64,000 nt of DNA. Source: Candidatus Collierbacteria bacterium RIFOXYD2_FULL_45_13. GTDB taxonomy: Bacteria > Patescibacteriota > Microgenomatia > UBA1400 > MFAQ01. Of the stretch, positions 30,181-36,901 are shown piece after piece (position 1 is the stretch's first letter; every line of letters begins with the position of its first letter). The stretch is from positions 961,252 through 1,025,251 of the forward strand of contig MFAS01000001.1 in the NCBI GenBank assembly GCA_001774685.1, given 5' to 3'. A program made the position numbers and the translations under genes. The notes below the pieces were generated by a model. It did not search any database. It saw only the letters and a program-made list of their open reading frames with translations, and had not been told where the DNA came from.

Positions 30181-30915
30181 ATGTCTCCTATCAACACGCA
30201 CACCTTATACATAGGTCTATCCATACTCATCACCTGGCTCTGGAGCTCCAATCCTAGCCTTAATATCTACAATCTCCAATTAACCGGAGTCCTCACCTTG
30301 CTCTACTTCGGCTTCAAATTTTTCTTTCGACCATCTAACCAAAAAGCTCTCAACCTACCGTCTACGATCATCCTGAACACCATCTGTCTGTTATTGATCT
30401 TTTCTACCGGGGGTCTCACCTCGCCATTATTTTTTCTCCTAGATTTACTTTTCTTCGCCCTAGCCCTGCTCTTTGAACCTATTCAGGCCATTGTAGCCTC
30501 CTCTTTAATAGTGATTATCTTTATCGTTCAGAACTATACTGCTCTAGACACCAACAAAATCATCAACCTCGTCTCCTTGATCCTTATGACACCAATCGCT
30601 GTTATTTTCTCTCGGAACTTTATCGAAGTTCTTGAGAGCAAAGGCAAGATCAAGGTGTTACAAACAGCTCTTCTGGAGACCGAAACCGAAAGTCTTCTTT
30701 GGATTTCCAGACAAGCCAAACCTTCACTAGCTTCAGTCCTAAACTCTACTACCGACTTAGTCATGTACTTCAACTCCAAAGGTAGAGATCTTCTCCTCCC
30801 GCCAGCCATTGTTGAAAAACTTAAGTCCATCCAAACCGACATGATCACCCTTTACTCTTCCGCCAGCTCACTGGAAAAGACCATCGAAAAGGAGTCCGAT
30901 AAGAACAAGTTATAA
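30181..30915 (+). CDS. hypothetical polytopic membrane protein with cytoplasmic C-terminal domain
   Basis: Five to six hydrophobic helices then a charged tail. First gene of the downstream plus-strand cluster. Confidence 0.5.
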   Translation: MSPINTHTLYIGLSILITWLWSSNPSLNIYNLQLTGVLTLLYFGFKFFFRPSNQKALNLPSTIILNTICLLLIFSTGGLTSPLFFLLDLLFFALALLFEPIQAIVASSLIVIIFIVQNYTALDTNKIINLVSLILMTPIAVIFSRNFIEVLESKGKIKVLQTALLETETESLLWISRQAKPSLASVLNSTTDLVMYFNSKGRDLLLPPAIVEKLKSIQTDMITLYSSASSLEKTIEKESDKNKL

Positions 30916-30933
30916 ACTTAATATACCAATATA

Positions 30934-31815
30934 ATGTTCGGGTTTCCTCAGTCCCTTCCAGCACAAAACATCACCATATCATTTCGCTTTTTGTTGTTTG
31001 TTCATACTATATCAAAAGCTTACTCCTCAAGCCTGAAAATATCCCAGTTACTAGAAAAACCCACCTCAAAATCATCGAGTTTCAACTTACTCAGACCCAT
31101 ATTGTATGTTTTGATGTTGTCTTTTTTCATATTTTGTTTTCACCCATTTGTTTACGCCGACAATCTGTTTTCTCCCTCTTTCGAAGTTGACATGGGAACA
31201 ATAAACATCACCGGCGGCAACAAGACTTCCACCACTTACCGTCTTTCTGATACGGTGGGGCAAACCGCCCAAGGACAGTTCAACTCCTCCGGTTATATCG
31301 TCAAGGCCGGTTTCCAATACGTCCGCGAACTGACGCCATTTACATTTACCGTGTCAAACCTGGACCTCAATTACGGCAGTCTGGTACCTGGCACCCCCAG
31401 TCTCCTCACCAATATTCTGACCGTCACCACCGGTAGCGCCTACGGCTACACCGTCAAAGCTCTTGAGGATCACCCACTCCGAATCTCGAACGGTAGTACT
31501 ACCATACCGGACACTTCCTGCGACCTGGCCTCCACTTGTACCCAAACCGATGCTACCCCCTGGACGGTAAATACCCGTTATGGATTCGGCTACAACATTC
31601 AGGGCACGGATGTCGATACCGCAGACTTCATAAACAACACGTATTTCCGCCCCTTCCCGATTCAGGACATCGATCCTCCGGCTACGGTCATGAGCCGATC
31701 AGGCATCGCGACCGCCTCCGCGGCTACCGTTACGTACAAAGTAAACATTGATGGCGCTCAAGCAGCGGGCACTTACCAAAACAATATCCAATATATTGCC
31801 ATTCCTTCTTTCTAA
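30934..31815 (+). CDS. secreted beta-rich protein ending ...AAGTYQNNIQYIAIPSF (true start probably internal)
   Basis: Signal-like hydrophobic stretch ILYVLMLSFFIFCFHPFVYA at residue about 55 of the track ORF. C-terminal motif shared with 32822..34258. Confidence 0.5.
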   Translation: MFGFPQSLPAQNITISFRFLLFVHTISKAYSSSLKISQLLEKPTSKSSSFNLLRPILYVLMLSFFIFCFHPFVYADNLFSPSFEVDMGTINITGGNKTSTTYRLSDTVGQTAQGQFNSSGYIVKAGFQYVRELTPFTFTVSNLDLNYGSLVPGTPSLLTNILTVTTGSAYGYTVKALEDHPLRISNGSTTIPDTSCDLASTCTQTDATPWTVNTRYGFGYNIQGTDVDTADFINNTYFRPFPIQDIDPPATVMSRSGIATASAATVTYKVNIDGAQAAGTYQNNIQYIAIPSF

Positions 31816-31818
31816 TAA

Positions 31819-34258: not shown

Positions 34259-34281
34259 ACATAATATAACCAAACCATCAA

Positions 34282-35295
34282 ATGACAAAGTCTGCCCACA
34301 AACTCAATACCAAGCTTCTTTTCTTCAGCATAACCGTTGCTCTAGCCGTTGGAGCCATCACCCCGTCTCCTTTCTCATTTGTTCCTCCGGTTTCGGCCCA
34401 ATCGGTCATCACAGCTATTCCTCCAAGGCTGGTACTCTCCGGTAAACCGGGTGAGACTATTAACGCTCAACTCAAAGTTAGAAATGATTCCGAAGAAGCT
34501 CAAAATTACACTGTCGCCGTCGAAGACTTTATTGTGTACGACACCCAAGGAACACCCATTCCTGTCGCACAGTCAGCCGGGAACCGCTGGTCTCTTGCTT
34601 CTTGGGTTTCCGCCCCTGACGTAATTCCCGTCGACACCAAGACCACCCAAATCGTTAATATCAGAATCAAAGTTCCTTTGACGGCCCTCCCCGGTGGTCA
34701 CTACGCCATGCTCACCTACATGCCCAACGGAGACGTCAAACCCGGACAGATGAAAAAGACCGCTTCTATCATCGGTCAGAGAGTCGGCACTCTTATCTAC
34801 TTCACCGTCGCCGGGCCCGTCACCGAAAAGCTTAATATCCTCAAGTTCTCAGTTCCCCAGTTTTCCGAACAAGGTCCTATCAACTTCACCGGTACCCTCG
34901 AAAGCCTTTCGGACATTCACATCACCCCGGTCGGTAACATCACCATTTCCGATCCTCTGCGCACCAAAGTTGCCGAAGTGCCCGTCGAAGCGGGTAGTGT
35001 CTTCCCTGAGACACAAAGAGATTTTGTTTCCACTTGGACACAAAAATGGGGTTGGGGCAAATATCGGGCCGACTTAAACCTCGCCTACGGTACTACCGGC
35101 GCCGTCGCTACCGCCACCATCTTCTTCTGGCTCTTCCCCATCCGTTTGGTGATCTACTCACTCATCGCCATTATCTCTATTCTCACCGCTATCATCTTGC
35201 TTAACAAACGTAGCAAGAGACATCAAGAAATGCTTGAGAAGGAAGTGACCGAGCTAAAGGAAGAACTGGAAAAGCTCGAAGAGTCGAAGAAATAA
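34282..35295 (+). CDS. second PapD-like-motif surface protein with C-terminal TM anchor plus charged coiled tail
   Basis: SVITAIPPRLVLSGKPGETINAQLKVRNDSEEAQNYTVAVEDF aligns with the 31819 protein. C-terminal helix LVIYSLIAIISILTAIILLNKRSKRH. Confidence 0.55.
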   Translation: MTKSAHKLNTKLLFFSITVALAVGAITPSPFSFVPPVSAQSVITAIPPRLVLSGKPGETINAQLKVRNDSEEAQNYTVAVEDFIVYDTQGTPIPVAQSAGNRWSLASWVSAPDVIPVDTKTTQIVNIRIKVPLTALPGGHYAMLTYMPNGDVKPGQMKKTASIIGQRVGTLIYFTVAGPVTEKLNILKFSVPQFSEQGPINFTGTLESLSDIHITPVGNITISDPLRTKVAEVPVEAGSVFPETQRDFVSTWTQKWGWGKYRADLNLAYGTTGAVATATIFFWLFPIRLVIYSLIAIISILTAIILLNKRSKRHQEMLEKEVTELKEELEKLEESKK

Positions 35296-35323
35296 AGATC
35301 CTGGCAGTATACTGGAAACAGAC

Positions 35324-36901
35324 GTGAAATTAATTATCCGCCTTGGTACTACCGGACTAATCTATCTGTTTCTTTTTTGGAGAGCCACCTCGGTGCTGGC
35401 ATCCACAGTTCCTGTTTCCGCCAGCGTTCCGGATCTTTCGTTTAATCCTCCCACTCTCATTGCGCCTATCGCCGATGCTACCGTCAATACTGCCCGGCCC
35501 TCCTTTTCCTGGTCCCGCCCAAGCCCTGTCCCTTCTAGTCCTCTTAGTTACTACGACTTTTATCTCGACGATACCGTCTTTGCCGCCTCCGTCAGTGACT
35601 CGCTTGTCACTCAAGACTACTATTTCTATACTGCCTCCGCCTCAGCCGGTACTTTTAACATCCTGCTCAAGACCGATCTGGCTCAGGGGTATCACACTTG
35701 GAAAGTCATTGCCTACACCGAAAATGGTATCTCTTCAGCTTCCGAAACCCGTCTTTTTTATCTTGACTCCATCACTCCTTTTATCTCTGTCACCAAAGTC
35801 GACAACCAAACTCTCTCCTGGAATACCTCTGTTCCGACGTCAATTCCCTCTATAGAAAATCGTTACTTGACCATTTCCACCTCCGATCCGATAATCGGTG
35901 GGGGTATCGAAACCTATTCAAACATTCAAATAGTCCTCGTCTGCCCCGCAGGGCTATCTGGCTGTAGCAACCAAATCTTCACCGGCAATATTTCTACTGG
36001 TCTTTGGAACTCCCACTTTTACGGACTTCAGAGAGGTCGCACCTATACCGTCACCATCTCGGCTACCGATGCCGCCGGAAACACCAATCTTTTCCCCGAC
36101 TTCTTCATCACTTTTGGAACGCCTATCCCCACCATCACACCAACCTCGAGAATCACCCCTACATCAATAGTCACACCAACAGCATCGGTTTCGGCACCCA
36201 TTACTCCTTCTATCTTTCCTACCTTACCATCAATCTCGATCGCACCCCCCATCAACGAATTAAATATTATTACCCCCGCATCTTACGTTCCGGCCACCCC
36301 TCCTGCCCCAACTCCCCCTCCGGTCAAAAAAGAAACTGCTTTCAAACCGCTGTATCTTTTTTACCTGTTCCTCTTAATTCTCATGGTTTTTGGACTTCCT
36401 CTCCACCTGCTCATGGCTTCAATCGGCACCGCGACACCTTTACGGTTCACACTCAAGTTCCTGACCATATTAGCCTTTCCCTTCTTCAGAAAAAAATCAT
36501 ATCAAACAATTCCCTTTTCCAGTATCGACATCTTTATCCCTGATAAATTGGACCATGCCTGGCAGTCTACAATAGCCGACATAAAAGGCTTTTATAGTTT
36601 GCGTTCTCCCATACCTGACAAAATCTTTATTGAAATGTCAGCTGTGGGACGGTCATGGAAGAACAATCTATTTAGAGGTTCACTTATTCCTCTTTGCTGT
36701 CTCTGTCCTCTACTCACAAGCCACCAAGATGGACACACAAGGCTTCGGAAAACACTCTACGACAATAGAATCATTCCGCTGATTATCGCCCTAATTACCA
36801 GTACCACGGCTTTCGTCATTACACCTTCCTATTTTATTTTCATCTATCTATATTTTTCACTGCAGTATCTTTTCTCGGAATATATATATCCAAAAATATA
36901 G
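35324..36901 (+). CDS. surface protein: signal peptide, Ig/FN3-like domains, Pro/Thr linker, C-terminal multi-TM domain (GTG start)
   Basis: PT-rich linker TPIPTITPTSRITPTSIVTPTASVSAPITPS..PPAPTPPPV then hydrophobic helices. Confidence 0.5.
   Translation: MKLIIRLGTTGLIYLFLFWRATSVLASTVPVSASVPDLSFNPPTLIAPIADATVNTARPSFSWSRPSPVPSSPLSYYDFYLDDTVFAASVSDSLVTQDYYFYTASASAGTFNILLKTDLAQGYHTWKVIAYTENGISSASETRLFYLDSITPFISVTKVDNQTLSWNTSVPTSIPSIENRYLTISTSDPIIGGGIETYSNIQIVLVCPAGLSGCSNQIFTGNISTGLWNSHFYGLQRGRTYTVTISATDAAGNTNLFPDFFITFGTPIPTITPTSRITPTSIVTPTASVSAPITPSIFPTLPSISIAPPINELNIITPASYVPATPPAPTPPPVKKETAFKPLYLFYLFLLILMVFGLPLHLLMASIGTATPLRFTLKFLTILAFPFFRKKSYQTIPFSSIDIFIPDKLDHAWQSTIADIKGFYSLRSPIPDKIFIEMSAVGRSWKNNLFRGSLIPLCCLCPLLTSHQDGHTRLRKTLYDNRIIPLIIALITSTTAFVITPSYFIFIYLYFSLQYLFSEYIYPKI

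Follow-up and report, generated by a model that had tools for sequence, protein, structure and literature searches.

Positions 30181 to 36901 of a 64,000-nucleotide stretch of contig MFAS01000001.1 from Candidatus Collierbacteria bacterium RIFOXYD2_FULL_45_13 (the whole stretch is called the window below) hold six open reading frames (ORFs) on the plus strand, named p244, p293, p331, p478, p337 and p525 after their lengths in amino acids. This cluster is probably a Microgenomatia version of the Pam operon of the candidate phyla radiation (CPR), that is, a set of genes for a chaperone-assisted, usher-less donor-strand pilus built where there is no outer membrane. The host belongs to the Microgenomates group of the Patescibacteria and so, like the host of the known Pam system, falls within the CPR. 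Proteins 100% identical to these have also been deposited for Candidatus Collierbacteria bacterium RIFOXYB2_FULL_46_14. An earlier note on this DNA had described a five-gene cluster encoding secreted subunits and anchored, chaperone-like partners, perhaps a pilus-like system of a monoderm. The interval contains six genes rather than five, and the ORF coordinates and the C- and N-terminal strings that were quoted are present verbatim. The idea of a subunit and anchored-chaperone system of pilus type gains support from Pam-related subunits and from partners with a chaperone fold. The further suggestion that the system was possibly undescribed has to be given up, as it matches the CPR Pam pilus (bioRxiv 10.64898/2026.03.03.709456; NF058579, NF058581).

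Pam filaments of Candidatus Mycosynbacter amalyticus were described by cryo-electron microscopy (cryo-EM) and are made of the pilins PamA and PamB, in which a strand of the inter-domain linker is donated into the C-terminal domain of the next subunit (10.64898/2026.03.03.709456). According to the same preprint, the operon also encodes PamE and PamT, the latter with a single acceptor domain and the proposed tip; PamC and PamD, two PapD/FimC-like chaperones with a C-terminal transmembrane (TM) helix; and PamR, an RbmA-like protein with a TM anchor and, at its N-terminus, a strand predicted to insert into the last pilin. An usher is absent. PamA homologues were reported there mainly from Saccharimonadia and, by a language-model search, from Microgenomatia, and the carriage of PamA homologues by the latter group is thus already known. 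We compared the cluster with PamA to PamE, PamR and PamT by means of NCBIfam models and the published descriptions.

The link to Pam pili runs through the two secreted proteins, p293 (30934..31815, plus strand, 293 amino acids (aa)), a small PamT-like subunit, and p478 (32822..34258, plus strand, 478 aa), a large subunit and candidate major pilin. A C-terminal domain of about 150 residues is common to both (p293 143-293 against p478 321-478; hhalign probability 99.9%, E 1e-32), and the C-terminal strand that the earlier note had seen to be shared belongs to this homologous domain. The model NF058579 CPR_pilus_PamT matched p293 with an E value of 3.5e-14 (52.8 bits, model positions 6-141 of 241), as it did 57 of the 62 members of the p293 family (best 1.2e-15). 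NF058581 CPR_Pam_pilin_C was matched by p293 (E 1.7e-4, 21.7 bits) and by p478 (E 1e-3, 19.2 bits), the alignment covering model positions 5-148 of 148, and its matches extended to 72/76 members of the p478 family (best 7e-7) and 57/62 of the p293 family (best 2e-11). Judged from these alignments, the subunits are truly but distantly related to Pam, and p293 is a distant homologue of PamT, not an equivalog. At E <= 1e-3 a profile of the p293 family retrieved 1407 cluster representatives, every protein with the shared domain being counted, 654 of them at E <= 1e-10 and 137 at E <= 1e-30 (1.84 billion searched). Neither p293 nor p478 had a match in Pfam, WxL included, and p478 and the p478-family profile found no match among PDB sequences.

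In the large subunit p478 the signal peptide is followed by a beta-rich N-terminal domain (about 30-274), which a linker with the sequence ESVRVTATVDP (275-285) joins to the C-terminal pilin domain (about 286-478). The AlphaFold2 (AF2) model of p478, with a predicted local distance difference test score (pLDDT) of 91.9, has two beta-rich parts, and the protein ends in AAGDYENQITYTATASF. Conservation of the terminal motif, which had been proposed as a check, was found in both subunit families: residues Q461, G464, Y466, N468, Y472, A474, T475 and F478 are invariant in 76 homologues of p478, and the p293 family retains Q276, G279 and Y281. In the monomer AF2 model the linker is a coil between the strands at 265-274 and 287-293. 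A VRVTATVDP-type motif (p478 residues 277-285, codons at 33650..33676 on the plus strand) was present in 77/79 p478-family sequences and in 0/63 of the p293 family, and the linker peptide was the first of the three most conserved p478-family peptides when these were picked automatically. No other stretch of p478 is as conserved as the linker. A near-invariant linker that lies outside both sheets is as expected of a donated linker strand, which makes these nine residues a candidate donor strand, and the lack of the motif in the p293 family fits a tip subunit that accepts a strand and does not donate one.

Residues at about 370-385 of p478 read IVDADGDNGTANETT, where the family consensus is IPDTxCDxGxCTxT, and the conserved cysteine pair of the shared domain (C196 and C202 in p293) is missing from the window's p478. 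Two tandem copies of the large pilin gene occur in some relatives among the loci surveyed below (L028, 3821-6799; L065, 8498-11374; L073, 3-2891; L074, 8110-11428) and are reminiscent of PamA/PamB; the window has one copy. In the small subunit p293 the leader is followed by an N-terminal module of small size (about 75-142) and then by the pilin domain common to both subunits (143-293). Its leader has 74 residues before the likely cleavage site, between VYA and DN, against 25-35 in most homologues, so that the true start is uncertain; the only alternative in-frame starts are TTG codons at 30991, 30994 and 31102.

In order to see how far the cluster is conserved, we surveyed one genome per species by means of automatically picked, conserved peptides of the p478 family. 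This yielded 78 loci, which were translated in six frames and whose ORFs were searched with the window proteins. The loci span Collier-, Woese-, Beckwith-, Shapiro- and Cerribacteria, and the order that is kept runs from ComEA, on the minus strand, through p244, p293, p331, p478, p337 and p525 to a giant protein. Matches to p478 were found in all 78 loci, to p337 in 70, p293 in 66, p331 in 63, p244 in 58, the giant protein in 49 and p525 in 36, figures that have to be read with the fact that many of the loci end at contig ends and that p525 is divergent. The six-gene order is retained from Collierbacteria to Shapirobacteria at 31-90% identity. With the synteny in these 78 Microgenomatia loci the cluster also passes a check set by the earlier note, the co-conservation of the four genes for subunits and anchored partners. 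All homologues for which the source gives a name are called 'hypothetical protein'.

Within the window the six genes are separated by gaps of 3-28 bp, no terminator-like sites were found between them, and an Rfam scan of 29-38 kb gave no match. A 716-bp AT-rich gap separates p525 from a downstream ORF of 3038 aa. There are exactly two proteins with the shared domain and two chaperone-like proteins, with no further paralogues of either in the window, and hhalign cross-comparison of the remaining pairs of cluster proteins was negative.

Membrane-anchored proteins of the cluster

Each secreted subunit gene is followed by the gene of an anchored, chaperone-like protein, p331 (31819..32814, plus strand, 331 aa) after p293 and p337 (34282..35295, plus strand, 337 aa) after p478. 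The two are paralogous over 267 columns (hhalign 100%, E 3e-48). The first has a signal peptide, two beta-sandwich domains, a TM helix at 295-313 and a basic tail, and sits between p293 and p478 in 63/78 loci. In p337 a signal peptide is followed by domain 1 (43-176, DUF916-like), domain 2 (184-284) and a TM segment with a charged cytoplasmic tail (287-337); the hydrophobic membrane segment spans 289-307 and lies within an AF2 helix at 287-336. A hydrophobicity scan, together with this helix, agrees with the C-terminal TM helix and basic tail that had been noted on both proteins. The AF2 model of p337 (pLDDT 84.4) contains two beta-sandwich domains and a low-confidence hairpin at about 149-167. 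Its top matches in a Foldseek search of the PDB were Enterococcus faecium WxLIP structures (9i1y_A, 2.9e-12; 9i25_C, 4.7e-12), followed by CfaA, YadV, CsuC, CupB2, FimC, PapD, Caf1M and DraB (E 1e-10 to 1e-7) and also RbmA. The earlier description of these proteins as PapD-like therefore holds for the two-domain PapD/FimC-type chaperone fold, while the PapD-like motif on which it was based is not significant by sequence. A PapD/FimC fold combined with a C-terminal TM helix is what has been described for PamC and PamD, with which the two proteins were compared by description only.

The profile comparisons pointed in a different direction from PapD. PF06030 (WxLIP_PGBD, formerly DUF916) matched p337 with 15.5 bits (E 0.019), below its gathering score of 27.3 bits; at E <= 0.1 it matched 70/80 members of the p337 family (best 2.7e-5) and only 4/56 of the p331 family. 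The sole match of the p337-family profile among PDB sequences was EfmWxLIP1 (E 0.0018). A WxLIP profile that we made from eight annotated WxL loci, on plasmids of Enterococcus, Lactococcus and Lactiplantibacillus, aligned with the p337 family over 236 columns (hhalign 98.3%, E 1.8e-14) and with the p331 family (97.5%, E 6.7e-12), against less than 12% for the other cluster proteins and less than 2% for reversed-sequence controls (1.6% for p337). The match stood at 96.2% when the signal peptide and TM helix were left out and at 96.5% (E 9e-10) with domain 1 alone; domain 2 alone was not significant, though its alignment is collinear. By comparison, a profile of chaperone-usher chaperones (PapD plus nine plasmid-borne chaperones) gave 9.8% with p337 (26.5% with its domain 1), 0.5% with p331 and 1.2% with WxLIP, and PapD_N, PapD_C and usher models had no matches. 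Since WxLIP profiles match and PapD-type profiles do not, p331 and p337 are homologues of WxLIP with the same architecture, which share only their fold with PapD-type chaperones. Against the literature that we searched, a sequence-level homology between this family's Pam-type anchored chaperones and the WxLIP of Bacillota seems to be new.

The last gene of the cluster encodes p525 (35324..36901, plus strand, 525 aa), a membrane protein with Big_13 immunoglobulin (Ig)-like domains. A signal peptide precedes these domains (about 40-265), and a Pro/Thr-rich linker (about 265-340) joins them to several TM segments (345-525). The protein was found downstream of p337 in 36/78 loci, all 31 of the 31 family members have Big_13 Ig-like domains (best 3e-21), and hhalign comparison with the pilin and chaperone families indicated that it is unrelated to them. 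Its mature N-terminus follows the pattern V-[ST]-A-[TS]-[VI]-P, in which A33 never varies, and resembles the core of the pilin linker, V-T-A-T-V-(D)-P. We treat this likeness as a lead only, because the motif is short and the proteins are rich in Thr, Ala and Val. By analogy, p525 is a candidate terminator or anchor that might have a PamR-like role.

The first gene, p244 (30181..30915, plus strand, 244 aa), encodes a polytopic membrane protein with about five hydrophobic segments, a C-terminal helical tail and a conserved tGGl.SPlFF motif. A homologue was found on the upstream side in 58/78 loci, next to the cluster in Collierbacteria and at a distance of 1-5 kb in many Woesebacteria-type loci. 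The protein had no Pfam or NCBIfam match and no detectable relatives outside the context of the cluster. A kinship with the C-terminal membrane part of p525 was considered and rejected, the two being unrelated. The Big_13 domains and hydrophobic segments of these two proteins are in keeping with the earlier mention of a fifth protein with Ig-like domains, a PT linker and a multi-TM C-terminus, and of a polytopic membrane protein upstream.

Assembly model and alternative explanations

A possible course of assembly can be drawn by analogy with the PamA/PamB cryo-EM work, the biology of chaperone-usher systems and the WxLIP hairpin. The C-terminal domain of an exported subunit would be an incomplete beta-sandwich with a groove beside its last strand, AG-Y-N-I-Y-A-SF, and this groove would be capped by a hairpin strand from domain 1 of an anchored chaperone, p331 acting for p293 and p337 for p478. 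A disordered hairpin of WxLIP turns into the strand with which the beta-sandwich of its partner is completed (PMC10599100), and the low-confidence hairpin of p337 aligns with the position of the WxLIP hairpin. The linker VRVTATVDP of an incoming p478 would then displace the chaperone strand on the previous subunit in a donor-strand exchange, powered by the energy of folding and not by ATP. Having an acceptor domain and no linker motif, p293 would start the fibre and end at its tip. Finally, the membrane-embedded p525 might supply the last strand through its VSATVP-type N-terminus, stop growth and anchor the fibre.

A number of points weigh against placing the cluster with Pam. None of the NCBIfam scores comes near its curated cut-off (52.8 against 240 bits for NF058579, and about 20 against 55 bits for NF058581). 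Among the best 150 p293-family representatives, not one reached an E value of 1e-20 with the PamT model, so that the family forms a separate clade outside the curated PamT family. Because it fails these thresholds, the locus does not count as a Pam member in the strict sense of annotation. The chaperone families match no Pam-named NCBIfam model, and a structure search with the whole p478 model gave generic beta-sandwiches only, from a PDB set that does not include the Pam structures 25PZ (PamA) and 25QA (PamB). There is one large pilin here against three in Pam (PamA, PamB and PamE), and the polytopic p525, with its Big_13 domains and Pro/Thr linker, differs from PamR, which has two fibronectin type III (FnIII) domains and one TM helix. 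ATP synthase genes, which have been reported near pam operons (10.64898/2026.03.03.709456), were not found among the neighbouring ORFs scanned. Each of the donor-strand assignments in the model is one that we infer by analogy. No filament is known to have been seen in any Microgenomatia organism.

The main rival to a Pam-type pilus is a static complex of the WxL type, in which each secreted protein would stay in a one-to-one association with its own WxLIP-like anchor and act as a surface adhesin, with no fibre being formed. Such a complex would suit the homology of the anchored proteins to WxLIP and the alternation of one subunit gene with one partner gene; a crystal structure shows WxLIP and a long WxL protein stably bound to each other (9i25), and the two secreted proteins of WxL clusters, one small and one large, have a C-terminal domain in common (PMC10599100). 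We nevertheless consider it unlikely, because the shared domain of p293 and p478 is related to the filament-forming Pam pilin domain and has no detectable relation to WxL, and because an exposed, near-invariant linker is hard to explain unless there is a groove for it in another subunit. In addition, two WxL proteins usually go with a single WxLIP in WxL clusters, whereas here there are two partners.

The remaining explanations are far less probable than a static complex. A classical chaperone-usher, sortase-dependent or type IV pilus would agree with the PapD/FimC-like fold of the chaperones, and a protein with a prepilin N-methylation motif is encoded 10 kb downstream (46749-47417), but we give this reading very little credence, as no usher, sortase, LPXTG protein or prepilin motif was found in the six proteins, CPR cells have no outer membrane, the chaperones are membrane-anchored, and the sequence profiles of chaperone-usher chaperones do not match them. 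That unrelated Ig-fold secreted and membrane proteins lie together by chance, with no common assembly pathway, is just as hard to believe and is already disfavoured: Ig-like beta-sandwiches are common, many of the structural matches are generic and no Pfam family scored above threshold among the cluster proteins, but the six genes keep their order across the range of identities given above, the pairs are paralogous and alternating, and the sequence links to the Pam and WxLIP families are specific.

Flanking genes

The giant protein downstream of the cluster (37617-46733, plus strand, 3038 aa) has two N-terminal phage-integrase SAM-like domains (PF02899, E 5.6e-13) and continues with a hydrophobic segment and a huge Gly-rich part that contains an internal duplication of about 800 aa. 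In 49/78 loci a homologue of this protein follows the pilus cluster directly, and the protein may be the 'tail fibre-like protein' reported beside pam operons (10.64898/2026.03.03.709456). Directly after it, at 46749-47417 on the plus strand, is the gene of a 222-aa type IV pilin-like protein, the one with the prepilin methylation motif (PF07963, E 7e-5).

On the other side, ComEA (29234-29848, minus strand) is transcribed away from the cluster, as is ComEC, and is the conserved upstream neighbour in 36/78 loci. ComEC, also on the minus strand, is split into two ORFs, one with the Competence domain (28109-29230) and one with the metallo-beta-lactamase domain (27336-28112). Farther away, a second giant surface protein of 2275 aa, in which Kelch repeats and fibronectin type III domains are numerous, is encoded at 17158-23985 on the minus strand. 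The GC skew of the plus strand is negative nearly throughout the window (about -0.1 to -0.35), whichever strand is coding, so that the two strands differ strongly in composition. A disparity in strand composition is said to be named in the title of a paper on another Microgenomates genome.

Comparison with known assembly systems

The locus has in common with chaperone-usher pili (Pap, Fim, Caf, Csu, CFA/I) the two-domain Ig-like fold of the chaperones, at Foldseek E values of 1e-10 to 1e-7, and, if the model above is correct, the logic of donor-strand complementation and exchange. In the conserved last strand of its subunits hydrophobic residues alternate, and the C-terminal residue or its neighbour is aromatic, with a glycine 14 residues upstream; we take this pattern to resemble the C-terminal motif of chaperone-usher subunits. 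Unlike those systems it has no usher and no outer membrane, and its chaperones are tied to the membrane. Its pilin carries one more domain, at the N-terminus, and presumably takes the donor strand from the internal linker, where chaperone-usher subunits use an N-terminal extension. The chaperones have no significant profile likeness to those of chaperone-usher systems, and neither an outer-membrane usher nor a periplasmic chaperone with PapD_N and PapD_C, by which such systems are recognised, was found in the cluster.

The resemblance to Pam operons extends over most of the parts. Both systems have a CPR host, a Sec signal on all components and no usher; a small subunit with a single acceptor domain, PamT-related here at E 3.5e-14; a large two-domain pilin, the C-terminal domain of which matches the Pam_pilin_C model in our locus; and two chaperones in which a signal peptide and two Ig-like domains precede a C-terminal TM helix, PamC and PamD in the one and p331 and p337 in the other. 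A membrane-anchored protein of Ig/FnIII type is encoded in both operons, and a giant 'fibre-like' protein beside them. Apart from the differences already weighed, the order of genes in our locus is a strict alternation of subunit, chaperone, subunit and chaperone, unlike that of Pam, the cluster is headed by the conserved polytopic p244, and its neighbours are ComEA and ComEC. A large part of bacterial diversity falls to the CPR, whose members live on host cells to which they attach by mostly unknown means. The locus indicates that Microgenomatia widely carry a compact pilus operon of Pam type, in conserved synteny, with proteins that score below the curated cut-offs used by NCBI annotation, and it offers a minimal list of parts for experiments.

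The comparison with the WxL (Csc) clusters of Bacillota, in which WxLIP combines DUF916 (PF06030), DUF3324 and a TM helix, gave a mixed result. The earlier note had likened the locus to WxL/DUF916-DUF3324 loci, and this parallel stands for the anchored partners, for which WxLIP is the top structure and the profile match is 98.3%. The anchored partner is homologous in the two systems over about 240 columns, with domain 1 significant alone, and in both WxLIP and the p331/p337 pair two Ig-like domains lie between a signal peptide and a TM helix. In both, moreover, a small secreted protein amounts to about the shared domain and a large one carries that domain C-terminally, and in both the anchored partner is thought to complete the sandwich of the secreted protein with a hairpin strand. 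The parallel does not extend to the secreted domain itself. The note had also set the terminal Y/A motif equal to W-x-L, but a profile built from 14 WxL domains gave a probability of less than 1% with the shared C-terminal domain, and neither a match to Pfam WxL (PF13731) nor the two W-x-L motifs that mark WxL proteins were found in the secreted proteins. The locus further differs from WxL clusters in having no LPXTG protein, in having two anchored partners instead of one, and in its CPR host. WxL systems have been described as peptidoglycan-bound complexes and not as fibres.

It is tempting to speculate on what the WxLIP link might mean. The Pam-type chaperones and WxLIP may be one family, with Pam pili and WxL complexes as two branches of a single ancient pathway of strand complementation that served monoderm cells without an usher, and with WxLIP acting as a donor-strand chaperone on a tether, not as an adhesin that binds the host; we put forward this combined reading tentatively, as somewhat short of an even chance. 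We found no paper tying WxL to PapD or DUF916 to the CPR in the literature searched: the term 'WxL' appears zero times in the Pam preprint (10.64898/2026.03.03.709456) and 'chaperone' zero times in the WxLIP paper (PMC10599100). By tying the Pam chaperones in sequence to the WxLIP family of lactic acid bacteria and enterococci, the locus suggests that surface assembly in cells lacking an outer membrane has a common mechanism of strand complementation, and that the function of WxLIP may be read anew. If the proposal is true, some WxL clusters might build short fibres, and the locus in Microgenomatia would add a minimal third variant to Pam pili and WxL complexes, with one subunit for the tip, one for the shaft, two chaperones, a polytopic anchor with Ig domains and p244.

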